A stretch of 35,451 nucleotides of DNA, from IMG/VR virus record IMGVR_UViG_2695420367_000003, positions 1-35,451 of that record. The stretch is one strand, 5' to 3'. A program made the translations under genes and the position numbers. Below the pieces are notes generated by a model. It worked only from the letters and a program-made list of their open reading frames with translations. It was not told the origin of the DNA and did not search any database. This document shows positions 17,795 through 29,308 of this stretch, piece by piece (within the stretch, counting starts at the first letter, position 1; each line of letters starts with the position of its first letter). Source of the DNA: a virus. Its lineage: Duplodnaviria; Heunggongvirae; Uroviricota; Caudoviricetes.

Positions 17795-17849
17795 CCTTAC
17801 CCTTCATCACTAAAGGCCGCCTGTGCGGCTTTTTTTACGGGATTTTTTT

Positions 17850-18125
17850 ATGTCGATGTACACAACCGCCCAGCTGCTGGCGGCAAATGAGCAGAAATTT
17901 AAGTTTGATCCGCTGTTTCTGCGTCTCTTTTTCCGTGAGAGCTATCCCTTCACCACGGAGAAAGTCTATCTCTCACAAATTCCGGGACTGGTAAACATGG
18001 CGCTGTACGTTTCGCCGATTGTTTCCGGTGAGGTTATCCGCTCCCGTGGCGGCTCCACCTCTGAATTTACGCCGGGATATGTCAAACCCAAGCACTTAGC
18101 ATGGCTTTCTGAGGCTTTCGTGTAG
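17850..18125 (+). pseudogene. E: Major capsid protein E, 5' portion only (codons 1 to about 82), interrupted by the satellite insertion
   Basis: MSMYTTAQLLAANEQKFKFDPLFLRLFF…SEFTPGYVKPKH matches the lambda gpE N-terminus, then diverges into 9 unrelated codons and a stop at the insertion junction. Confidence 0.9.
18085..18094. repeat. Left junction core (attL-like) AACCCAAGCA
   Basis: Identical 10-mer at 28518-28527; joining the flanks restores …GTCAAACCCAAGCATGAAGTG… (VKPKHEV of E). Confidence 0.75.
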
Positions 18126-18257
18126 TTGCTGGTTTTTACACTTAATCTTTTGATAATAAAGAATAAGTTTATCTGGCGCTTTCACTGGATTTTCCTCGTT
18201 ATCTGTGTGTTGCAATCATCTCTGTATTGCAGCTTGTATTGCTTTTTGGGGCTAAAA

Positions 18258-19493
18258 ATGGCTGGCGAGAACAAACTGAGCGACAAAGCACTTAAAGGAT
18301 ATCTGGGGAAACCCAGAGAAAAGCAGATCACCATTGCTGATGGAAAGGGGCTTTCTATTCGTGTGAGTACCAAGGGGGCTGTGAGCTTTGTTTTCTTCTA
18401 CAGGTTAGCAGGTGGCCGGGCTGCTCCGGTCTGGCTAACGTTGGGTAAATATCCTGATATGTCACTCAAACAGGCAAGGGAAAAGCGCGACGAGTGCCGT
18501 GGTTGGTTGGCTGACAAACGTGATCCGCGTATCCAGATTAAGATTCAGGCTGAAGAACGCTTAAAGCCGGTCACAGTGGAGGATGCACTAAATTACTGGT
18601 ATGAAAATTACTGTAAGGTGCGTCGTAAAACTCATGCTGTAACGCTTGGCAGATTTCGAAAGCATATCTTTCCCTATATCGGTCATTTGCCCGTAAATGA
18701 CACTCACCTATATGAATGGCTGGACTGTTTTGACCGAATTAAACGTAATGCACCAGTTATGGCGGCGTATGTTTTTTCTGACACTAAATTAGCTCTTCGT
18801 TTTTGTCGGGTACGCCAGTACGCGACGTGTGATGCTTTAAAGGATTTGCGCATGAGTGATGTGGGGCAGATTGCAGGTAAGCGGGATCGGGTTCTGGATG
18901 AAGCCGAACTGGGCCAGCTCTGGAAGGCAATTTTTGTCGAGCCTGATTTAAAACTAATGTCTGAATACACGCGAAAAATGTTTGTGCTTTGTACAGTATT
19001 TGGATGTCGAATGAGTGAAGCCCGATTATCAGAATGGAGCGAATGGGATCTCGAAAGTTGGGTTTGGACTGTACCAAAAGATCACTCAAAAACTGGTGTT
19101 GAAATCGTCAGACCAGTACCTGAAATTCTACGACAGTGGGTAACGGATGTTCACGAAGAGACAAAACATACTGGTTATGTGCTGGGAAGTCTGCGAATTA
19201 GAGAAAGCGTAAGCAAGATTGGGGGGAAAATCGGTAAACGTTTGGGCCATGAAAAACAATGGTCACTACACGACCTTAGAAGAACGCTTTCAACCCATCT
19301 GAGTGATTTGGGCGTTGAGTTTCATGTAGTGGAGCAGCTGTTAGGCCATGCGCTACCTGGCGTGGCAGGTGTTTACAACCGGAGTAAGTTTATGGCTAAA
19401 AAACTGGATGCTCTGGAACTCTGGACTACATATCTCAATAGCATCGCAGCTGCTGATTCAAAAGTGACAATCCTCAAACAAAAGGCTGGTTAA
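18258..19493 (+). CDS. int: Tyrosine integrase (P4-type, with N-terminal arm-binding domain)
   Basis: N-terminal …LSDKALKGYLGKPREKQITIADGKGLSIRVSTKGAVSFVFFYR…; catalytic-region motifs HDLRRT…LLGH…VYNRS; true ATG at 18258, the track start is upstream. Confidence 0.88.
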   Translation: MAGENKLSDKALKGYLGKPREKQITIADGKGLSIRVSTKGAVSFVFFYRLAGGRAAPVWLTLGKYPDMSLKQAREKRDECRGWLADKRDPRIQIKIQAEERLKPVTVEDALNYWYENYCKVRRKTHAVTLGRFRKHIFPYIGHLPVNDTHLYEWLDCFDRIKRNAPVMAAYVFSDTKLALRFCRVRQYATCDALKDLRMSDVGQIAGKRDRVLDEAELGQLWKAIFVEPDLKLMSEYTRKMFVLCTVFGCRMSEARLSEWSEWDLESWVWTVPKDHSKTGVEIVRPVPEILRQWVTDVHEETKHTGYVLGSLRIRESVSKIGGKIGKRLGHEKQWSLHDLRRTLSTHLSDLGVEFHVVEQLLGHALPGVAGVYNRSKFMAKKLDALELWTTYLNSIAAADSKVTILKQKAG

Positions 19494-19494
19494 C

Positions 19495-19728
19495 ATGAAA
19501 AAAATGGCAATTGTCGATAAAAAGGGTCTGGAGTACATTCCTAACATTGACCGTATGATCCGCGAAAAAGAATGCCGTGAGTTAACTACTCTTGCTAATA
19601 GCACTCGATGGAAGTTAGAGAAAGAAGGAAAGTTTCCAAAGCGTATTAAAATAGGTGCCACTGCCGTAGCATATCGCCTTTCGGAGGTGCAGGCGTGGAT
19701 TCGTGGGGAATGGTACTTAAATAAGTAA
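19495..19728 (+). CDS. alpA: AlpA-family HTH regulator/excisionase-like protein
   Basis: …ECRELTTLANSTRWKLEKEGKFPKRIKIGATAVAYRLSEVQAWI… fits the AlpA pattern; directly follows int. Confidence 0.8.
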   Translation: MKKMAIVDKKGLEYIPNIDRMIREKECRELTTLANSTRWKLEKEGKFPKRIKIGATAVAYRLSEVQAWIRGEWYLNK

Positions 19729-19736
19729 ATCATTTC

Positions 19737-19765
19737 AATTAGGTAGGTTTATTACCTACCTAATT
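19737..19765. terminator. Perfect palindrome AATTAGGTAGGT-TTATT-ACCTACCTAATT between convergent genes (bidirectional terminator candidate)
   Basis: Seen directly: 12-bp perfect inverted repeat with a 5-nt loop, between the alpA stop and the stop of the minus-strand 241-aa gene. Confidence 0.6.
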
Positions 19766-19768
19766 AAT

Positions 19769-20494
19769 TTAAATCATGTCTGCCTTATTTCCTAATTTTA
19801 TGGAGCAATCCTCTAAAAGATGCCCGATGAACTTATGAGTTCCAATAACATAATCTTGAAGCCTATATTCCATTCCTAATAATGACTTGTTCTCTTTGTC
19901 CTTGAAAAAAGGAAAAGAGGCAAGGTTTTCATCGACAATATAAAGGTGTTTGATTTTGTTGTTTAAAACCCTAGTTTCGTTAATGACATCGTAAGAATCA
20001 AGTTGGGAGAGGTCAATACCATAACTTAAGTATTTCTTTTTTAATTTATCCCATGTATATGGAACTTTAACTTGACTTTCAGGTATTTCTTTAATAATTG
20101 CTTCTAGCAAAGAGTATGCCATGGTACTAAACTGTTCAATAATAGCCCAAAGATTAATTACGACACTGTCATTGGCAAAAAATGAGGCTTTTCTATTAAG
20201 ATCATCATAATAACCAACCATCTCTCTATGTCTGGCTTGAGAAATCAAGGCCATTTCATGCACTTCATCGTCTAATAAGTCTGGATTATATTGGGGAGTG
20301 TTGTCTGCAATTTTTTGTATCTCCTTAAGATTTATGTTATATGTATGATAAACAAATGAGTGAAATACTATTAGATCTTCAAGTCGGAACGAAAATTTCC
20401 CAAGTAGAGACAGGAATCTACTATCATGAGGGAAATAATGTGGGATAGGATTGTCTGTTAAATTATATTCACTTATTCGTTTTAGATTTTGCAT
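19769..20494 (-). CDS. Hypothetical 241-aa protein, AT-rich cargo (function unknown)
   Basis: Long ORF, visibly AT-rich versus surrounding genes, co-oriented and 24 nt downstream of the RHH gene; no motif I recognise. Confidence 0.6.
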   Translation of the reverse strand: MQNLKRISEYNLTDNPIPHYFPHDSRFLSLLGKFSFRLEDLIVFHSFVYHTYNINLKEIQKIADNTPQYNPDLLDDEVHEMALISQARHREMVGYYDDLNRKASFFANDSVVINLWAIIEQFSTMAYSLLEAIIKEIPESQVKVPYTWDKLKKKYLSYGIDLSQLDSYDVINETRVLNNKIKHLYIVDENLASFPFFKDKENKSLLGMEYRLQDYVIGTHKFIGHLLEDCSIKLGNKADMI

Positions 20495-20518
20495 CTCTCA
20501 CAGATCCTTTTAAAAGTC

Positions 20519-20713
20519 TTAACCTCTAGGTTCAATACCTTGTTTGCGTAGTTCTGCTCTTGCTAGTTCTTTAAGCCAATTAGCCAAACTCATTCCTTCT
20601 TTTGCAGCCGCACTAACCATTTGTTCTTTTAGTTCCGGGTGGATACGGATCTGAAATGCCGGTGCCTTACCAGCACCTTTCGGCTGTTTATCGCGCTGAA
20701 TGATAGTTGACAT
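20519..20713 (-). CDS. Ribbon-helix-helix (CopG/Arc-like) DNA-binding protein; candidate repressor or antitoxin
   Basis: 64 aa; …FQIRIHPELKEQMVSAAAKEGMSLANWLKELARAEL… is typical of RHH proteins; first gene of a leftward operon diverging from the replication module. Confidence 0.65.
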   Translation of the reverse strand: MSTIIQRDKQPKGAGKAPAFQIRIHPELKEQMVSAAAKEGMSLANWLKELARAELRKQGIEPRG

Positions 20714-20716
20714 GTA

Positions 20717-20817
20717 TGTACCTATTGCTTAGTATGCTTCTTGATAGGTACACACCTTATCATGTTTTATTACTCTGTAACAACGCCCTGCAGTGCTCGC
20801 AACACATACAGGGCGTT
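20717..20817. promoter_or_regulatory. Divergent control region with two 9-bp inverted repeats, each with an 18-bp spacer
   Basis: TGTACCTAT…ATAGGTACA (20717-20752) and AACGCCCTG…CAGGGCGTT (20782-20817), between the divergent RHH gene and the 20853 ORF. Confidence 0.5.
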
Positions 20818-20852
20818 TAACCACCAACGATAGCAACAGTATCGAGGTAGCT

Positions 20853-21056
20853 ATGAGAAATCATACCACACACCCGCAAGGGCGGGACCCGCACAACCTG
20901 AATAAATACATCTGGCGTTTTATCGCCCTGAGTACGGCACAACCGCGCGTGATTACCATCGAGGCCACCAGCGAACAGGAAGCCCGCCAGCAATCCCCAA
21001 CTGGCTGCGTGATGATATTCGCCGCCCGTATTCGTCAGGAGGTGTGCCATGAATGA
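20853..21056 (+). CDS. Hypothetical small protein (67 aa)
   Basis: GAGGTAG RBS before the ATG; first gene of the rightward operon leading to the primase. Confidence 0.5.
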   Translation: MRNHTTHPQGRDPHNLNKYIWRFIALSTAQPRVITIEATSEQEARQQSPTGCVMIFAARIRQEVCHE

Positions 21057-21273
21057 TCTTTATTTGAAAGTGCTGACACATGCTGAAAACGCGCTCGTTT
21101 GTGGCAAAAATATGCGAGAAATCTTATCAACCTGGCTTGATGGGACAACAAATGCGGAACACGATGAACGGGATGCTAATTTAGCTGGAGCGTTAATTAC
21201 GTTACTTGATCCTGTCATCAAAGAGCTGGATGAAGCTATAAAAATACACGACCAGAGCTATACCGGAGAATAA
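21049..21273 (+). CDS. Hypothetical small protein (74 aa)
   Basis: AGGAGGTG RBS; start overlaps the upstream ORF stop. Confidence 0.5.
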   Translation: MNDLYLKVLTHAENALVCGKNMREILSTWLDGTTNAEHDERDANLAGALITLLDPVIKELDEAIKIHDQSYTGE

Positions 21274-21276
21274 AAA

Positions 21277-21564
21277 ATGAAAAATAAATTTTCTGGCTTT
21301 ATTGCCAGCGGTCAAACTCATTCAAAAATCAGCCTTGGGGATATTTTCAAAGACAGCTATGGCTATCGGGTAAAGATTATTTCGGTTGATGATCGTCGTG
21401 TCTCTTATTTGCGTGATGGTTATGATTTTGAATGTGTTATGCCGCGTCAGCAGTTCGAAAGAGATTTCATTCTGGTAAAAAATTGCAAGACAGATAATCA
21501 GAGGCGTGCCGCAGGCTATATCCGTAAAATTCGGGCAATGTTAGTTGCCGGAGGTAACAAATGA
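21277..21564 (+). CDS. Hypothetical small protein (95 aa)
   Basis: GGAGAA RBS; stop overlaps the primase start. Confidence 0.5.
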   Translation: MKNKFSGFIASGQTHSKISLGDIFKDSYGYRVKIISVDDRRVSYLRDGYDFECVMPRQQFERDFILVKNCKTDNQRRAAGYIRKIRAMLVAGGNK

Positions 21565-23381
21565 AACGTGCTCCGAACTTAAAATACCAACCGCGCGACA
21601 AAATGACGGAAGTCATCATTTTTGCTGGCAGTGATGCCTGGAGCCATGCAAAAGAATGGAATGAATGGGCAGGTAAGCATATTGCAGCAGATGATACACC
21701 ACCAGTCATTCTGGGTACAGAACAACTGGAAAACCTGGATGATATGCAAATTATCGATGAAGGCCGTCATTATGTGCGTGTTTATCGTGCTGGAAAGATT
21801 GCAGAGAAAAGTCTGACGAAGGTTGCGACATTACTTGCTATTGCAGGCGTAAAGGAAGCACGTTGTTACCGTAGCTTTGTTGATCGAGAGCCTGAAGACT
21901 GGACTCCGCGCCTTGTCGGCCTAAAAGCTGAAGCGGAGCATGGGGAAAGTCTGGTGATTGAACTGCCAGTGAAGAAGGCAGAGCGCAAAAATGACGAGCG
22001 TGCTTCATCTTTGGCGTTGAATCAGATGGGGGCCAGCCAGCGCGGTGAAGTTCTCCTTGCACATTACGGCGGCGAACTGGCAATCAATGCCGACTCTGAC
22101 ACCGTTCATCATTACAACGGCGTTGTATGGGAGCCGGTTCAGGATAAAGAGTTACAGCGTGCTATGGCGCAGATTTTCATTGATGCGGAGATCAGCTATT
22201 CGCAGAACGCTATTAAATCGGCGGTAGATACCATGAAGTTAAGTTTGCCTGTAATGGGGAATACAGCCCGTAACCTGATTGGATTCAGTAACGGGGTATT
22301 TGATACCAGAACTGGTAATTTTCGGGAGCATAACAAAAACGACTGGTTGTTAATTGCCAGTGAATTACCTTTCAGCCCACCAGCAGAGGGGGAAACGCTG
22401 GCAACACATGCGCCGAATTTCTGGAAGTGGTTGCGCCGTTCGGTGGCTGAGAATGACCGCAAGGCAGATCGCGTACTGGCGGCATTATTCATGGTGCTGG
22501 CGAACCGGTACGACTGGCAGTTATTCATTGAGGTAACAGGGCCGGGGGGAAGTGGTAAAAGTGTGATGGCGGAGATTTGCACCATGCTGGCGGGTAAGGC
22601 GAATACAGTATCAGCAAGCATGAAGGCGCTGGAAGATGCAAGGGAACGTGCGTTAGTGGTTGGCTTTTCGCTGATTATCATGCCGGATATGACCCGCTAC
22701 GCTGGTGATGGGGCAGGGATTAAGGCCATTACAGGCGGTGACAAGGTGGCAATTGACCCGAAACACAAAGCCCCCTATTCAACGCGTATTCCGGCAGTAG
22801 TGCTGGCGGTTAACAATAACGCCATGTCATTCAGTGACCGCAGCGGGGGGATCTCACGTCGTCGGGTGATATTCAATTTTTCGGAAGTTGTACCGGAGAA
22901 CGAACGCGATTCGATGCTGGCGGAAAAAATAGAAGGTGAGCTGGCGGTAGTGATTCGTCATCTGCTTACACGGTTTGCTGATCAGGACGAAGCCAGACGC
23001 CTGTTATATGAGCAGCAGAAATCTGAAGAAGCACTGGCGATAAAGCGAGAGGGGGATTCGCTGGTGGACTTCTGCGGCTATCTCATGGCATCGGTAATGT
23101 GTGATGGCCTGTTAGTGGGTAATGCTGAAATTGTGCCATTCAGCCCACGCAGGTATCTCTATCATGCCTATCTGGCTTATATGAGGGCACATGGGTTTGG
23201 TAAACCTGTAACACTGACGCGCTTCGGTAAAGATATGCCGGGGGCAATGGCGGAATATGGCAGGGAGTATATGAAACGGAAAACGAAGCACGGTTTGCGT
23301 TCAAACGTGACACTGACGGAGGAATCAGAAGACTGGATGCCATCATGTGTATCGGTCACTAATGACGATAGCAAAAATTAA
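21561..23381 (+). CDS. Phage/plasmid primase-helicase (P4-alpha-like domain with SF3 helicase Walker A GPGGSGKS)
   Basis: 606 aa; Walker A and downstream helicase-like motifs; immediately followed by the iteron array. Confidence 0.85.
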   Translation: MKRAPNLKYQPRDKMTEVIIFAGSDAWSHAKEWNEWAGKHIAADDTPPVILGTEQLENLDDMQIIDEGRHYVRVYRAGKIAEKSLTKVATLLAIAGVKEARCYRSFVDREPEDWTPRLVGLKAEAEHGESLVIELPVKKAERKNDERASSLALNQMGASQRGEVLLAHYGGELAINADSDTVHHYNGVVWEPVQDKELQRAMAQIFIDAEISYSQNAIKSAVDTMKLSLPVMGNTARNLIGFSNGVFDTRTGNFREHNKNDWLLIASELPFSPPAEGETLATHAPNFWKWLRRSVAENDRKADRVLAALFMVLANRYDWQLFIEVTGPGGSGKSVMAEICTMLAGKANTVSASMKALEDARERALVVGFSLIIMPDMTRYAGDGAGIKAITGGDKVAIDPKHKAPYSTRIPAVVLAVNNNAMSFSDRSGGISRRRVIFNFSEVVPENERDSMLAEKIEGELAVVIRHLLTRFADQDEARRLLYEQQKSEEALAIKREGDSLVDFCGYLMASVMCDGLLVGNAEIVPFSPRRYLYHAYLAYMRAHGFGKPVTLTRFGKDMPGAMAEYGREYMKRKTKHGLRSNVTLTEESEDWMPSCVSVTNDDSKN

Positions 23382-23394
23382 ACTTATGGAATAA

Positions 23395-23620
23395 CTGTTC
23401 ACCACTGTTCACCCTGTCATAAATATCTTTTATATCAGTATATTATAGGGTGAACAGTTATTTATGAACTGTTCACCAAACTATTCACTGTTCACCTTTT
23501 TGATTGTTTATTGAGCTTCAAGGGTGAACAGTGGTGAACAGTTGGTGAATAGTTTTTGTGAAACTGTTCACCCATTAACATTATGAATTAAAAGAGAAAA
23601 TATCAAAAGGTGAACAGGTG
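23395..23620. repeat. Satellite replication origin: at least 10 copies of the iteron GGTGAACAG/CTGTTCACC in both orientations
   Basis: Seen directly: the motif recurs at about 23396, 23406, 23449, 23469, 23489, 23524, 23534, 23545 (variant), 23565 and 23610 within an AT-rich stretch downstream of the primase. Confidence 0.8.
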
Positions 23621-23668
23621 AAGGGTTAAAACGCAAAAATTTTAATTTACTGCTGTGAGATAAAGCCT

Positions 23669-23914
23669 ATGACAGCGAAGCACACAAAAAAATCACAATC
23701 GCACGCCCTTGATTTGACGGAACACTGGTTAAGGGTGTCGATAAAAATCATCGACCGCAACGCCGGGGAAGGATACGCGAAAGCACATCCCGAACTGATT
23801 AGCGCATTCATGACAACGGCGGCTGCAAACTTTGCCACTCTGACCGAACGGGAGATTGCTGAAGCGGAGGAAGTGACAACAATCAATATTAAGTCCGGAG
23901 AGCAGGCAGCATGA
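23669..23914 (+). CDS. Hypothetical protein (81 aa)
   Basis: ORF overlapping the SSB-like gene start; no recognisable motif. Confidence 0.45.
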   Translation: MTAKHTKKSQSHALDLTEHWLRVSIKIIDRNAGEGYAKAHPELISAFMTTAAANFATLTEREIAEAEEVTTINIKSGEQAA

Positions 23915-24360
23915 TGGCGCAAATATCAGTTTACGGGCGGTTGGTGGACGACCCGCAGACAAAACAGACCAGCAAGGGCACCCCCATGACGCTGGCGCGT
24001 ATGGCGGTATCAATGCCCTGCAGTCAGTCGGATGACGGTCAGGCGACGATGTGGTTATCTGTCCTGGCGTTTGGCAGACAAGCCGACGCACTGGCAAAGC
24101 ATCACAAAGGCGAACTCCTGAGCGTGGCGGGTAACATGCAGATGAGCCAGTGGACTGGACAGAACGGCGAAACGCGGCAGGGCTGGCAGGTTATCGCAGA
24201 CAGCGTAATCAGTGCGCGATCGGTGCGACCGGGCGGCAAAAAAGGCCAACAGGGGCAGGCTACTGACGAACTGAACAGAGCAAAACAACAGGCAGATCAG
24301 CAAGGAAGCCAGCCACCAGTGGGAGATAATGAGCAATGGGGAGATGATATCCCGTTTTAA
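23911..24360 (+). CDS. SSB-like single-stranded DNA-binding protein with C-terminal acidic DDIPF tail
   Basis: OB-fold-like N-terminal region parallels E. coli SSB; Gly/Gln-rich linker; C-terminal …EQWGDDIPF. Confidence 0.7.
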   Translation: MMAQISVYGRLVDDPQTKQTSKGTPMTLARMAVSMPCSQSDDGQATMWLSVLAFGRQADALAKHHKGELLSVAGNMQMSQWTGQNGETRQGWQVIADSVISARSVRPGGKKGQQGQATDELNRAKQQADQQGSQPPVGDNEQWGDDIPF

Positions 24361-24375
24361 ATATTGCCAATAAAA

Positions 24376-24401
24376 AAGGCCGGAAAAAATAAATTTTCCG
24401 G
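24376..24401. terminator. Hairpin GCCGGAAAA-AATAAA-TTTTCCGGC downstream of the SSB-like gene
   Basis: Perfect inverted repeat with A-rich and T-rich arms; a possible terminator or attenuator before the capsid genes. Confidence 0.4.
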
Positions 24402-24576
24402 CATGCTACATAAATCCCGACCAAAGGGAGTGAAGATATTAACACTAATTGTCCGCACTGAAGTTGTCACCCCAAAACTTTATACAACATTGCACTCGGT
24501 TGCATGTGTTCGCATGACAAATATCGGTGGTAGCATATATCCACAATTATTTTTAATGAATGCAAAGAGGATGCGT

Positions 24577-25617
24577 ATGGTTGATTTATATTCGCCTACT
24601 CAGCTTGTACAGGTGGTTAATGCTGTAGATGTACAAAAACAACTAAATGCGTTGTTTACCAGTTTGTTTTTTACTCGCTCGGTAATGTTTGAATCGCGCG
24701 ATATTATTCTTGATACAATCGACGATCCAAATATCCCAATTGCAGCGTTTTGTTCTCCTATGGTGGGTAGTAAAGTTTCACGTGACGAAGGGTACGAATC
24801 AAAAACAATTCGTCCAGGCTATATGAAGCCGAAAAGCAGCATTGATCCAAATAAGTTAGCTGTGCGCCCTGCTGGTGTATCACCTGAGCAATACAATGCT
24901 TTTGGGGCACGTAATATTAAAGTTAAACAGGCGATTGTAAATCAAGCTAAAGCTATTCGTGCACGTATTGAATGGCTTGCTGTTCAGGCAATCACAACGG
25001 GGAAAAATATCATTGAGGGCGATGGTATTGAACGTTATGAGCTGGACTGGAATATTAAACCACAAAATATCATCACTCAGTCTGGCGGTGCTGAGTGGTC
25101 AGGTAAGGATAAAGAAACTTTTGATCCAAATGATGATATTGAGAGCTACGCAGAATTTAGTGAGGGCGTCACTAATATTATCATTATGGGCGGTAATGTA
25201 TGGAAGAAATACCGTTCATTCAGAGCGATAAAAGAGGCTCTGGATACCCGTCGTGGTTCTAATTCCGAACTGGAAACGGCCCTTAAAGACCTTGGTGATT
25301 CGGTGAGTTTTAAAGGGTATATGGGCGATGTTGCGATTGTTGTATACAGCGGGCGTTATACCGACGAGGACGGAACTGAAAAACATTTCCTTGATCCTGA
25401 TTTGATGGTGCTTGGCAATACGGCTCTTCAGGGGATTGTCGCCTATGGCGGTATTCAGGATCCGGAGCTAATCCGAATGGGGCTGACTAAAGCCGAACTT
25501 GCACCGAAAAACTATATTGTGCCTGGTGATCCGGCTATTGAATATGTGCAGACACATTCAGCACCACAGCCAATACCGGCCCGCATCAATCGTTTTGTTA
25601 CCGTTCGCATTGGCTAA
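24577..25617 (+). CDS. Satellite-encoded major capsid protein, diverged homolog of lambda gpE
   Basis: C-terminal 180 aa align to lambda E (…SGGAEWSGKDKETFDPNDDIESYA…LDTRRGSNSELETALKDLG…GDVAIVVYSG…); N-terminal half diverged but collinear (RPGYMKPKS vs TPGYVKPKH); GAGG RBS 6 nt before the ATG at 24577. Confidence 0.85.
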   Translation: MVDLYSPTQLVQVVNAVDVQKQLNALFTSLFFTRSVMFESRDIILDTIDDPNIPIAAFCSPMVGSKVSRDEGYESKTIRPGYMKPKSSIDPNKLAVRPAGVSPEQYNAFGARNIKVKQAIVNQAKAIRARIEWLAVQAITTGKNIIEGDGIERYELDWNIKPQNIITQSGGAEWSGKDKETFDPNDDIESYAEFSEGVTNIIIMGGNVWKKYRSFRAIKEALDTRRGSNSELETALKDLGDSVSFKGYMGDVAIVVYSGRYTDEDGTEKHFLDPDLMVLGNTALQGIVAYGGIQDPELIRMGLTKAELAPKNYIVPGDPAIEYVQTHSAPQPIPARINRFVTVRIG

Positions 25618-25626
25618 GGGGGAGCA

Positions 25627-25968
25627 ATGGCTACTCATTACACTGAACTCATGGCTGGCACTGAAGCACTGGTGACTACACTGGGGATATTTTCAGCTAA
25701 TAAAGGGGTAATTCATGCATTTACGCCACTGATGCAGGAAGATGCAACAGGTGCACTGGTGGTATGGGATGGTTCGAGCGTAGGTAAAGCGGTTTATGTT
25801 TCCGCTGTACAAATCGACACCGCGAAAAAAACACAGGCTCAGGTCTATAAGACAGGTGTCTTAAATGTTGATGCTCTGAACTGGCCTGAGTCTGTTAAAG
25901 AACTGTCAGTAAAGGTTGCAGCGTTTGTTGGCTCAGGTATTTCTGTTCAGCCGCTGGCTCGTGTGTAA
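25627..25968 (+). CDS. Satellite-encoded head decoration protein, diverged homolog of lambda gpD
   Basis: 113 aa; shares the spaced pattern TPLM…WDG…G…Q.YK.G…WPE…AF.G..ISV with lambda D (copy at 17462-17794). Confidence 0.65.
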   Translation: MATHYTELMAGTEALVTTLGIFSANKGVIHAFTPLMQEDATGALVVWDGSSVGKAVYVSAVQIDTAKKTQAQVYKTGVLNVDALNWPESVKELSVKVAAFVGSGISVQPLARV

Positions 25969-25979
25969 AGGGGGATACA

Positions 25980-26363
25980 ATGCAGAATGATTACAATGAC
26001 CTTAAGCCAATTGCCGAAATGATGTACCCGAATCAAGCTGTAGAGGAATTAAAAGCTATCGCTGACAAAATGTGTTTAAGCGAGCGCCTTGTTGATATGA
26101 ATCAGGTGATGGAAATTACAACCCTGAGTCGTCGTACACTGCTAAACCTTGAGGCTAGTGGAGAGTTCCCGGAGCGTGTGCAGGTTACGGAAGGGCGTAA
26201 GGCCTGGTATTTAAGTGAAGTGATCGACTGGATAAATAATATTCCTCGCGCTTCTGAATATTGCCGCGTACCTGTCCCAAAAAAGCCAGATGCGGCGCTA
26301 TGCCTCAAGATTGAGCGTGTACGCCGCAATGCACGGGATGGTCGCTATAAGCTGATTGGTTGA
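25980..26363 (+). CDS. HTH DNA-binding protein (AlpA/MerR-like motif) adjacent to satellite cos
   Basis: …MEITTLSRRTLLNLEASGEFPERVQVTEGRKAWYLSEVIDWI… helix-turn-helix; last gene before cos. Confidence 0.6.
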   Translation: MQNDYNDLKPIAEMMYPNQAVEELKAIADKMCLSERLVDMNQVMEITTLSRRTLLNLEASGEFPERVQVTEGRKAWYLSEVIDWINNIPRASEYCRVPVPKKPDAALCLKIERVRRNARDGRYKLIG

Positions 26364-26413
26364 TGAAGTTAGGGCCCGCTCTGGCTGGCGGGTCCTTTCC
26401 GGCGATCCAGAAC

Positions 26414-26600
26414 GTTACGGGGCGTCAGGCGCGCAGATTCTTGCTATTTATGACAATTTTCTGCGATTTGCCGTTTCCGTTCTTCTTCCTCGTAACTTAG
26501 TGTTTTTACTAGAAATACCCTCTTAAAAGAAAGGAAATGACAGGTGCTGAAAACAGGCTTTTGGGTCTCCGTCATTTCCTTTCTCATTTTTATCTAAAAG
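26414..26600 (+). promoter_or_regulatory. cos: Satellite cos site (cosN-like 12-mer at about 26420-26431 plus cosB-like R and IHF elements), no terminase gene attached
   Basis: About 190 bp closely similar to the helper cos region (…CGTTTCCGTTCTTCTTC…AAAAGAAAGGAAA.GACAG.TGCTGAAAAC.GGCTTTT…TTTCCTTTCTC…); not followed by Nu1. Confidence 0.8.
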
Positions 26601-26815
26601 TAAGCATCGAGGCCACCCCAAATGCTTATAGAGGTTATTGTGTCACTATGCGTACTGTTCAGGATTTAAAGTAGCAAGACATCTAGTTGCTTGCAGTTTT
26701 GGCGAATGATGTGAGGTTCTCTATAACAGATAATGTAACAAGTTACTGATATATTCTGTTATGGTTGACTTTAAATTCTGTTGCTCCTTCAATGAATTAT
26801 TGAGGGGTGAAAATT

Positions 26816-26841
26816 AGGCGTGATAAGAATCGATCACGCCT
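26816..26841. terminator. Hairpin AGGCGTGAT-AAGAATCG-ATCACGCCT just beyond the 3' end of the minus-strand cargo gene
   Basis: Perfect 9-bp stem; T-rich on the plus side and A-rich on the minus side. Confidence 0.5.
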
Positions 26842-26846
26842 ATTGT

Positions 26847-28163
26847 TTATCTTGAAGAAATTTTAGGCAGGCTTTTTAAAAATAAATCTTTATTTCTACT
26901 TGCATCAGTTAAAAGTGTTAGGAATATTTTATCTGTAGGAGTGCATGTGCTCTTGTTTAACAGTAATTCACCAAGTTTCTGTAATCGAGAGAATTGCCCA
27001 TCCTCTTGGATTCTGTGACGAAGTGTACTATCATTTTTAATAACATCAACAAATGCAGAAACCATGTTAATATCAAAGTATTCAAACATTTCCAATATTA
27101 AAGGTGCAGCCCCATTTGAATAAAAATTCTTCCTTCCATACTGATAGCTGAAACCACGATGGCCAACATAAGTTTTTGTAATGGCTGAAACAAATTCAAC
27201 AATATTATCTTCAGGGACGAAACTCGAGAATGGTAATAATTGGGTTACGATTTTTTCCTCTTCTGACCAATTATCTAAAGACTCGGTGAGTTTATTAATG
27301 AGAGGCTCAATAATAACTTTTCGGGATGCAGGGCTAATATACATCAGTCCATCTACCAATAGTATGAATTGTTGTGCCTTCTCTATCTTATTGTTGTTTC
27401 CTGAAACTAAATACTTGTCAAATTGTTGGCCGACTTTACGTCGGTCGTCTTTTGAAAGTAATGTCCATAAAATAGGTGCGCAAAATTCAATGTTGTTTCT
27501 GAGTTCACTTGATATATTGGATGAGCAGTATGTGCCAAAAAAACGAGAGGATAATTCACTGATATAAATTGCAGGTAGATCTGAAAAGGCTTGCTTAACT
27601 GCCAGACTATTTTTATTAAATGTTGCCGAATCCATTTCTGAAAGATATGTAGATATATCTATGATGGCTGGTGGAAACTCTTTAGAAAGAACGTATTTAT
27701 TACAATCATTAATCAGGTTCACTACTTTGATTAAATCAGGGTCGCTACTTTGTGGATGTCCACCAAATAGATTCCTGGTTTCTCTAGCTTGTTGTAATAG
27801 TTTCTGACCTTCTCGATCGATAACTCCTATTTTAAATGCTCCATCTATTAAATCAAAGTCGCTCACATAATCCTGAAAATCTTCATACGTTTTAATTTCT
27901 TTTTTTTGTTTACACTCTTTGTTGAATAGATCTAGGCTACGATGAATTATCTTTTGACGTAAATCATCAACTACAGCATTCCAGTAAGCAGTGATGGCAC
28001 TTCTATAACCTTTTACAGGAAGAACTCTTATTGCTTCTGAAATATATGGGCAGTCAACTACATCATGCCTCACAGTTGAGAGCGCAGTTTGTAACAATGT
28101 AACTTCTGTAGAGTCTAGTGGAGTTGGCTGCACTAAATGAGAACTTATCTCTGTACCCTTCAT
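26847..28163 (-). CDS. Hypothetical 438-aa protein, AT-rich cargo (function unknown; candidate accessory or defence gene)
   Basis: Long uninterrupted ORF, visibly AT-rich, between satellite cos and the right junction; no motif I recognise. Confidence 0.6.
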   Translation of the reverse strand: MKGTEISSHLVQPTPLDSTEVTLLQTALSTVRHDVVDCPYISEAIRVLPVKGYRSAITAYWNAVVDDLRQKIIHRSLDLFNKECKQKKEIKTYEDFQDYVSDFDLIDGAFKIGVIDREGQKLLQQARETRNLFGGHPQSSDPDLIKVVNLINDCNKYVLSKEFPPAIIDISTYLSEMDSATFNKNSLAVKQAFSDLPAIYISELSSRFFGTYCSSNISSELRNNIEFCAPILWTLLSKDDRRKVGQQFDKYLVSGNNNKIEKAQQFILLVDGLMYISPASRKVIIEPLINKLTESLDNWSEEEKIVTQLLPFSSFVPEDNIVEFVSAITKTYVGHRGFSYQYGRKNFYSNGAAPLILEMFEYFDINMVSAFVDVIKNDSTLRHRIQEDGQFSRLQKLGELLLNKSTCTPTDKIFLTLLTDASRNKDLFLKSLPKISSR

Positions 28164-28517
28164 TTCAGGATTTTCCTATTCTTTTCCATTTTTCTACTCT
28201 ATTGAATTTGAAAAAGATATCAAGTTCGTTCTTGCCAGTTTTAAGTGGAAAAATTGATGTTACCTTATTGAGATAAGGCAGTTCTCTATAACCTATTGTT
28301 ATTAATTATTTTTATTTTTTTTCCAATTCAGATGTTTAGGGCTAAGAAGTTAAGTGAGAGTTCACAGCAAAACTGCTTCTAGTTCCTCACCGAGGAGCAA
28401 AAGGTTAAGACAGCGTACTTTGTATTGCACAATGTATTGCAGAACCTTCTTTCGAAAGCTACAACAATCAATTTTATATTGAAAATTCAATCATATCCTT
28501 TCGATATTGACTCATAT

Positions 28518-28527: not shown

Positions 28528-29308
28528 TGAAGTGAATCCGCAGATGACCCTGCGTCGCCTGCCGGATGAAGATCCGCAGAATCTGGCGGACCCGGCTTAC
28601 CGTCGCCGTCGCATCATCATGCAGAACATGCGTGACGAAGAGCTGGCCATTGCCCAGGTGGAAGAGATGCAGGCAGTTTCTGCCGTGCTTAAGGGCAAAT
28701 ACACCATGACCGGTGAAGCCTTCGATCCGGTTGAGGTGGATATGGGTCGCAGTGCGGCGAATAACATCACGCAGTCCGGCGGCACGGAGTGGAGTAAGCG
28801 TGATAAGTCCACGTATGACCCGACCGACGATATCGAAGCCTACGCGCTGAACGCCAGCGGTGTGGTGAATATCATCGTGTTTGATCCGAAAGGCTGGGCG
28901 CTGTTCCGTTCCTTCAAAGCCGTCAGGGAGAAGCTGGATACCCGTCGCGGCTCTCATTCCGAACTGGAGACAGCGGTAAAAGACCTGGGCAAAGCGGTGT
29001 CTTATAAGGGAATGTATGGCGATGTGGCCATCGTCGTGTATTCCGGACAGTACGTGGAAAATGGTGTCAAAAAGAACTTCCTGCCGGACAACACGATGGT
29101 GCTGGGCAACACTCAGGCACGCGGTCTGCGCACCTATGGCTGCATTCAGGATGCGGACGCACAGCGCGAAGGCATTAACGCCTCTGCCCGTTACCCGAAA
29201 AACTGGGTGACCACCGGCGATCCGGCGCGTGAGTTCACCATGATTCAGTCAGCACCGCTGATGCTGCTGGCTGACCCTGATGAGTTCGTGTCCGTACAAC
29301 TGGCGTAA
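28520..29308 (+). pseudogene. E: Major capsid protein E, 3' portion (codons about 80 to 341), separated from its 5' portion by the satellite
   Basis: …KHEVNPQMTLRRLPDEDPQNLADPAYRRRRIIMQNMRDEELAIAQ… to the C-terminus …DPDEFVSVQLA matches lambda gpE; no own start codon or RBS. Confidence 0.9.

Follow-up and report, generated by a model that had tools for sequence, protein, structure and literature searches.

A predicted two-layer switch of an Arc-like repressor operator and a SymR-like antisense RNA at the head of a satellite primase operon

To our knowledge, how the phage-inducible chromosomal islands (PICIs) and P4-like satellites of Gram-negative bacteria silence their replication operon and sense their helper is largely unknown outside P4. 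The question is raised anew by positions 20714-21564 of IMG/VR record IMGVR_UViG_2695420367_000003, a 35,451-nt stretch of Caudoviricetes DNA (the whole stretch is called the window here). This region lies within a ~10-kb integrase/AlpA/primase satellite and leads from the start of a leftward gene for a ribbon-helix-helix (RHH) protein to a rightward primase gene. An initial annotation had seen in it twin inverted repeats, both taken as operators, and three small open reading frames (ORFs) of unknown function. What do the two repeats do, and could they keep the operon silent? Our analysis points to a repressor operator in the first repeat (IR1) and to the end of a SymR-like antisense RNA in the second (IR2), which together are predicted to form a two-layer switch.

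Both repeats were recovered exactly where the initial annotation had placed them, with perfect arms and the same spacer (Table 1). Two perfect 9-nt inverted repeats appeared in the 139-nt intergenic region in ~0.4% of dinucleotide shuffles, and a chance origin was rejected on this frequency together with the covariation of the arms of IR1 and of IR2. Treating the repeats as twins did not survive comparison: the shared 9/18/9 geometry is a coincidence, and IR1 and IR2 differ in nature. For comparison we assembled 51 loci from different Enterobacterales species, each encoding a homologue of the RHH protein, of which 49 were usable.

The promoter prediction that the initial annotation had called for placed both the rightward promoter of the primase operon and the leftward promoter of the RHH gene over IR1. 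The rightward promoter matches 10/12 consensus positions; its TTGACA is kept in 44/49 loci, with TAnnnT 16-18 bp downstream in 28/49, and the leftward TGnTAnnnT recurs at the same offset in 34/49. Each IR1 arm holds an 8-bp pseudo-palindrome, and the two resulting subsites flank the rightward -10, while the last two bases of the leftward extended -10 fall in the right subsite. The predicted starts of these facing promoters are ~5 bp apart, so the promoters should exclude each other. In ~40/49 loci the distance between the RHH start codon and the inverted repeat is 0-3 nt and the outer span stays at ~43 bp, and in a similar number (~40/49) its two arms vary in step from locus to locus.

The RHH protein, whose homologues form 67 clusters in Enterobacterales, matches the RHH region of Pfam HicB at 22.1 bits (cut-off 21), only the C-terminal RHH part of that family being covered, and a PHROG Arc-like repressor (E = 8.6e-7). 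Its family profile matches P22 Arc (1b28, E = 1.7e-4), with residues 12-59 aligned to Arc 2-49 and PAFQIRI of the N-terminal β-strand aligned to PQFNLRW of Arc. Variable residues of this strand align with Arc Gln9 and Asn11 and an invariant arginine with Arc Arg13, which we take to be the base-contacting positions of Arc. The IR1 subsites of the different loci fell into five sequence classes that track the RHH β-strand motif: FQ(I/V)R is paired with GTA(T/C)GTAC or GTGTGTAC, FHMR with GTGTACAC, FRMR with GTGGTCAC and F(N/S)VR with GTAT(A/G)GAC. Subsite sequence follows the residue aligned with P22 Arc Asn11. Given the overlap with both promoters, the covariation of the arms and the agreement of the subsite classes with the β-strand, IR1 is most likely a bipartite RHH operator lying over the face-to-face promoters.

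IR2 is of another kind. As RNA, the minus strand of this part folds into two hairpins (-36.2 kcal/mol, z = -5.35) against -22.2 kcal/mol for the plus strand, which folds as well (z = -3.2), and the minus strand was the better fold in 47/48 loci. Counted over the minimum free energy structures of the loci, G·U pairs numbered 223 for the minus strand but 33 for the plus strand, and mismatches in the hairpin that read A·C as plus-strand sequence become G·U pairs in the minus-strand RNA. In a curated alignment (A4), 89.1% of cells were paired as minus RNA compared with 70.4% as plus RNA, with 79 and 4 G·U pairs, respectively; slid controls of this alignment gave 36-54% against the 89%, and 11 pairs were compensatory. 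A 50-sequence alignment, which was fitted to the model and so favours the structure, had 88.4% of cells paired (34-50% in slid controls) and double changes in 21/28 pairs, including all 11 of the IR2 (terminator) helix. MAFFT with RNAalifold on a mixed 42-sequence alignment recovered stem-loop 1 alone, the two terminator variants being misaligned; subfamily alignment and a covariance model solved this. As far as sequence comparison can tell, several results put the functional RNA on the minus strand.

The predicted ~74-nt RNA is complementary along its full length to the leader and ribosome-binding site of icd, the first gene of the operon. Its -10 hexamer in the window is TATGAT (complement of 20860-20865), and in 48/49 loci, K-12 included, a minus-strand TAnnnT occupies a fixed position within the first codons of the next gene, whether this is Icd-like, a SymE homologue, a member of a 176-aa family or another gene. 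On the minus strand, UUGUUUUU comes after the hairpin in most loci. Roughly one in four complete E. coli genomes carries the icd and hairpin module: by megablast, 1384 of 5426 match the icd module at ~85% identity or more. Most of these matches run from ~20776-20820 to where icd ends, and a single genome among them shares the RHH gene and IR1. As the matches start near IR2 and not at the RHH gene, IR2 is part of the icd module. The IR2 hairpin is also retained in sister elements whose YlcI/YnfO repressors and operators are different ones. In 14 sister loci the first gene is a SymE homologue (37-46% identity to K-12 SymE).

Which family does this RNA belong to? A covariance model (R1) built from 14 loci, with E. 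coli K-12 excluded, gave a single match in the window (20775-20855, minus, 74.8 bits) and no match in P4. In K-12 (L054) it matched 5833-5916 on the plus strand (28.7 bits, rough E value 6e-5 to 3e-4), coinciding with the annotated symR at 5836-5912. SymR represses translation of SymE in K-12, and a CATTCT-to-CACTCC mutation in the symR -10 abolishes SymR (Kawano et al. 2007, PMC1891008); this -10 is the same aligned hexamer as the TAnnnT of the sister loci. The type I toxin-antitoxin locus symE/symR of K-12 and the window share the succession of repressor operator, terminator hairpin, linker, Shine-Dalgarno (SD) hairpin, ATG and antisense -10 in the first codons, the linker being conserved (TAATCACAAT against TAACCACCAA) and the two-hairpin topology of the RNAs the same. 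Like SymR, the window RNA is thus a predicted two-stem-loop RNA opposite the 5' untranslated region and start of the adjacent gene, with homology detected by R1. The two systems differ in their targets, Icd-like and heading a primase operon in the window but SymE, of AbrB fold, in K-12, and in their repressors, a divergent Arc-like RHH protein and LexA, respectively. The window -10 also lies two codons nearer the ATG, so that the 5' end of the RNA is probably at -1, with the SD covered but not the start codon. On this evidence we regard it as very likely that IR2 is part of a SymR-family antisense gene.

Table 1. Predicted and annotated features of the control region and its flanking genes
Feature	Position	Strand	Remarks
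RHH gene, 64-aa ribbon-helix-helix (Arc-like) repressor	20519-20713	minus	
Rightward promoter of icd-orf74-DUF4222-primase	20707-20735	plus	predicted start ~20742
Rightward -35 TTGACA	20707-20712	plus	within RHH codons M-S-T of opposing gene
Rightward -10 TAGTAT	20730-20735	plus	17-bp spacer from -35
IR1 bipartite operator (predicted)	20714-20755		abuts RHH start codon
IR1 extended, 12-nt arms	20714-20725 + 20744-20755		11/12 match
IR1 core, arms	20717-20725 + 20744-20752		9/9, 18-nt spacer
IR1 left subsite GTATGTAC	20714-20721		
IR1 right subsite GTACACAC	20748-20755		
Leftward (RHH) extended -10 TGATAAGGT	20754-20762	minus	predicted start ~20747
IR2, arms	20782-20790 + 20809-20817		9/9, 18-nt spacer
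Predicted SymR-like cis-antisense RNA, ~74 nt	20779-20852	minus	start ~20852, end ~20779
Antisense RNA stem-loop 1	20819-20852	minus	covers anti-SD
Antisense RNA stem-loop 2 = IR2, 3' hairpin	20782-20817	minus	
Antisense RNA promoter (predicted), extended -10 TGGTATGAT	20860-20868	minus	inside icd codons 3-6
Icd-like gene ORF67, 67 aa	20853-21056	plus	first gene; SD GAGG 20844-20847
ORF74, 74 aa, predicted two-helix hairpin	21049-21273	plus	variable slot
ORF95, DUF4222 protein, 95 aa	21277-21564	plus	stop overlaps primase start
P4-family primase/helicase	21561-23381	plus	D5_N, DUF5906, Pox_D5

Taken together, a two-layer switch heading the early/replication operon of the satellite seems to us reasonably probable. 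In the DNA layer, the RHH protein would bind both IR1 subsites, around the rightward -10 and over its own leftward -10 and start; given that the subsites bracket the one and overlap the other, a single occupancy would repress the operon and autoregulate RHH. In the RNA layer, the antisense RNA would be made constitutively from within icd and end at the IR2 hairpin. By analogy with SymR acting on symE, it would block icd translation and destabilise the mRNA. It would thereby neutralise leaky transcripts, creating an expression threshold, and would limit expression of the primase, possibly through coupling or polarity. What the sequences show directly is the anatomy of the region, its conservation and covariation, the asymmetry between the strands and the homology to SymR; RHH binding, expression of the RNA, repression of icd, the downstream effect and an inducing signal are what we infer.

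Several points weigh against this switch. The Rfam symR model (RF01809), which scores 95.3 bits on its K-12 control, scores nothing in the window, either over its whole length with the gathering score as threshold or in 20650-21100 and 20765-20870 with E ≤ 10; the window RNA is therefore a divergent SymR relative. The hairpin is followed in the window by UUGUUACAG and not by a U-run, so termination may be inefficient, a feature it has in common with K-12 SymR, which likewise has no U-run. No recognisable -35 accompanies the antisense promoter. In the operon, every downstream ORF has its own GGAG-type ribosome-binding site, and a block of icd translation need not silence the primase. Finally, the covariation of RHH protein and operator could stem in part from co-inheritance of adjoining sequences.

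How do other explanations of the repeats fare? The view taken in the initial annotation, that both are protein operators for the satellite repressor or a second DNA-binding protein, has the identical geometry in its favour, and the arms of each repeat co-vary as a dimeric DNA-binding protein would select. The operator claim stands for IR1, which overlaps both promoters, has co-varying arms and tracks in sequence the predicted DNA-reading residues of the RHH protein. It does not extend to IR2, which is unrelated in sequence to the IR1 subsites, travels with the downstream gene, is kept beside unrelated repressors and operators and in K-12 symR, and is better placed as the 3' hairpin of a SymR-family RNA; its mismatches are mostly plus-strand A·C, that is minus-strand G·U, and DNA recognition carries no such strand bias. 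That both repeats are operators is thus very improbable. We also judge it highly unlikely that IR2 works as part of the sense transcript, be it as a leader hairpin or as a trans-acting RNA cut from that mRNA in the manner of P4 CI or P1 C4. Such RNAs do lie directly upstream of icd in P4 and P1, the plus strand does fold, and the 3' arm and linker of IR2 (20809-20826) are 14/18 complementary to 20913-20930 in icd (codons IWRFIAL), a conceivable pairing partner. However, plus-strand pairing is systematically poorer, and this complementarity is probably due to chance, the partner lying in codons that differ among sister loci and not being conserved there. Moreover, the C4 (RF01695) and isrK (RF01394) models found no match in the window in the same searches as the symR model, whereas in the P4 positive control they scored the C4-family CI RNA (74.9 bits) and the isrK-like leader (60.8 bits), directly upstream of an Icd-like domain.

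Two further readings concern purpose. The antisense RNA and icd might be a type I toxin-antitoxin or abortive-infection module for retention or defence instead of a replication gate. In 14 loci, none with a primase within 4 kb, this RHH/antisense cassette stands before SymE-family toxins; these look like stand-alone cassettes in genomic islands. One report (bioRxiv 10.1101/2023.04.06.535777) names an Icd-like protein of a primase-containing prophage operon as the probable effector of a growth arrest that a phage gene sets off, and P1 Icd is a cell division inhibitor (PMC8198154). In satellites, however, the cassette always heads an operon leading to a primase, as in P4, and toxicity of the 67-aa protein is putative. 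We consider this reading unlikely though far from negligible, and it is compatible with the switch, not exclusive of it. Most improbable is that the RHH protein is a HicB-type antitoxin of the downstream 241-aa ORF, with IR1 as the operator of that operon and no role in satellite control. This reading draws on the RefSeq name of the homologues, 'HicB family antitoxin', and on the position of ORF241 on the same strand, 24 nt downstream of RHH. The HicAB interpretation was rejected, as the protein has 64 aa and comprises the RHH part alone, and a HicA partner is absent. In most loci, too, RHH is monocistronic, with no same-strand gene downstream, and where such a gene is present it differs between loci; RHH is therefore not a HicB-type antitoxin, and current annotation mislabels it.

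Beside the SymR relationship, some further RNA matches were recorded. The window has a sub-threshold match on the plus strand (20781-20854) to RF00043, the antisense RNA of plasmid R1162/RSF1010, which reaches 18.2 bits where the gathering score is 55 (E = 0.24) and has the linker UAACCACCAAC in common; it may reflect chance or a distant kinship of replication-control countertranscripts. Rfam searches of 18 sister loci returned tRNA-Sec and one int-alpA motif only. The cassette of RHH gene, operator and SymR-like RNA stands before SymE-family genes in loci L023, L027-L030, L033, L034, L036, L037, L039, L041, L046 and L049, and four SymE-type loci (L023, L028, L036 and L049) adjoin tRNA-Sec (selC). 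A second SymR-like model match in L039 (4348-4427, plus, 38.3 bits) lies downstream of the RHH gene of the same locus; some islands thus hold two copies of the antisense module.

Downstream of the repeats, the initial annotation was accurate on the presence, sizes (67, 74 and 95 aa) and coordinates of the three small ORFs upstream of the primase, but calling all of them of unknown function went too far, as two fall in named families (Icd-like NF033153 and DUF4222). ORF67 scores 69.6 bits against the NF033153 cut-off of 25 (E = 1.8e-19) and matches phrog_6196 (E = 1e-45); by these profile matches it is Icd-like, with division inhibition as a putative function. ORF95 is a DUF4222 member (PF13973, 78.2 bits against a threshold of 27, E = 3.4e-22). 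ORF74 belongs to phrog_2196 and, with only four homologue clusters, to a narrow family. Structure prediction, also suggested in the initial annotation, gave a confident two-helix hairpin for ORF74 (AlphaFold2, pLDDT 87) and a low-confidence model for the DUF4222 protein (pLDDT 57). A structure search of the PDB with ORF74 returned generic coiled-coil or Rop-like matches only, none at E ≤ 0.001, and no similarity was found between P4 epsilon and ORF74 or ORF95. These results speak neither for nor against the helper-sensing function that the initial annotation had proposed for the small proteins.

The reading frames are tightly packed: ORF67 shares 8 nt with ORF74, a 3-nt gap precedes ORF95, and ORF95 shares the 4 nt ATGA with the primase gene; translational coupling among the small ORFs is plausible. 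Three E. coli sister elements (L055-L057) likewise have DUF4222 ahead of the primase, directly next to it in L055 and L057 and with an IS903B insertion between the two in L056, whereas the set of ORFs that separates icd from DUF4222 differs among sister elements in both number and kind. The primase itself matches TIGR01613 at E = 3.5e-27, its 95.1 bits lying under the curated cut-off of 108.7. An 18-nt repeat, AAAAATAAATTTTC(T/C)GGC, has one copy where the DUF4222 ORF begins (21280-21297) and another upstream of the satellite capsid gene (24385-24402). Just past the primase stop, a 21-nt direct repeat (TTAT..GAACTGTTCACCA) at 23384-23404 and 23458-23478, with 81% identity and 74 bp apart, may represent replication-origin iterons.

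In the immI region of phage P22, the RHH repressors Arc and Mnt and the sar antisense RNA control ant, and the promoters are overlapping and opposed. The window resembles this arrangement in placing an Arc-type RHH protein on overlapping opposed promoters and a cis-antisense RNA over a ribosome-binding site. Arc binds two adjacent subsites ~11 bp apart, whereas the subsites in the window are ~34 bp apart and flank the -10, and the RNA is SymR-type, not sar. The P1 immI operon (c4-icd-ant) is likewise controlled by a repressor and has icd as its first protein gene and an antisense RNA, which blocks icd and the genes behind it (PMC8198154). P1 C4, however, lies on the same strand upstream of icd and works through short complementary loops, in contrast to the fully complementary cis-antisense RNA of the window, and P1 has an antirepressor downstream where the window has replication genes.

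The immunity region of satellite P4 consists of PLE leader/isrK-like RNA, CI RNA, Icd-like ORF, epsilon, orf151, orf106 and alpha primase. Both elements thus run from a promoter through a regulatory RNA, an Icd-like gene and small ORFs to a P4-family primase. The RNA of P4 is a processed sense-strand RNA, and P4 has no protein repressor; in its place the window has a cis-antisense SymR-type RNA, together with a divergent Arc-like repressor. The P4 ORF that RefSeq calls 'cI gene product / transcriptional repressor' (L053, 8168-8584, minus) has an Icd-like domain at residues 85-132 and lies downstream of the real CI RNA. PHROG 6196, which includes the Icd-like protein of the window, is also labelled 'transcriptional repressor', a label that has possibly spread from the P4 annotation.

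The satellite (~18100-28500) interrupts a lambdoid prophage within its lambda E-like major capsid gene, the halves of which lie at 17823-18125 and ~28532-29308, and it has capsid genes of its own, one gpE-like (~24580-25617) and one for a gpD-like decoration protein (25627-25968). The insertion recurs in E. coli SCU-316 (L001), where the two parts of the capsid gene are listed as pseudogenes in RefSeq. The sister element L055 (1-2200; E. coli O157:H7 SS TX 313-1) directly follows a truncated prophage terminase large-subunit gene, its gene order being int, helix-turn-helix, BRO-N, YlcI/YnfO, icd ... DUF4222, primase. This position suggests that structural or packaging genes of helpers are the targets of the satellite family. 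Scanned with 12-nt seeds, the ends of the satellite showed no convincing att direct repeats. Two slots hold different cargo in the window and SCU-316: next to RHH, a 241-aa ORF (19769-20494, minus) and a 360-aa ORF (L001 7607-8689), respectively; at the right end, a low-GC 438-aa ORF (26847-28163, minus) and a restriction endonuclease (L001 15874-16746). The cargo ORFs of the window received no PADLOC, Pfam or NCBIfam assignment, and PADLOC had no matches to RHH or Icd.

Our literature searches on Icd-like proteins with satellites, DUF4222, SymE with PICIs and PICIs with RHH found no description of this switch, and its antisense RNA is missed by current Rfam models and RefSeq annotation. With P1, P4 and the predicted RNA of the window, three different antisense-RNA solutions guard Icd-like genes. 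The locus offers a testable two-layer switch in which a SymR-family antisense RNA is combined with an Arc-like repressor whose family shows at least five classes of operator specificity. It also ties symE/symR, long puzzling, to the control cassettes of mobile elements. Tentatively, K-12 symER might be the remnant of such a cassette, domesticated by exchanging RHH for LexA, and SymR-type RNAs with interchangeable RHH repressors might form the immunity and threshold switch of a large enterobacterial satellite family, filling the role that CI RNA has in P4.

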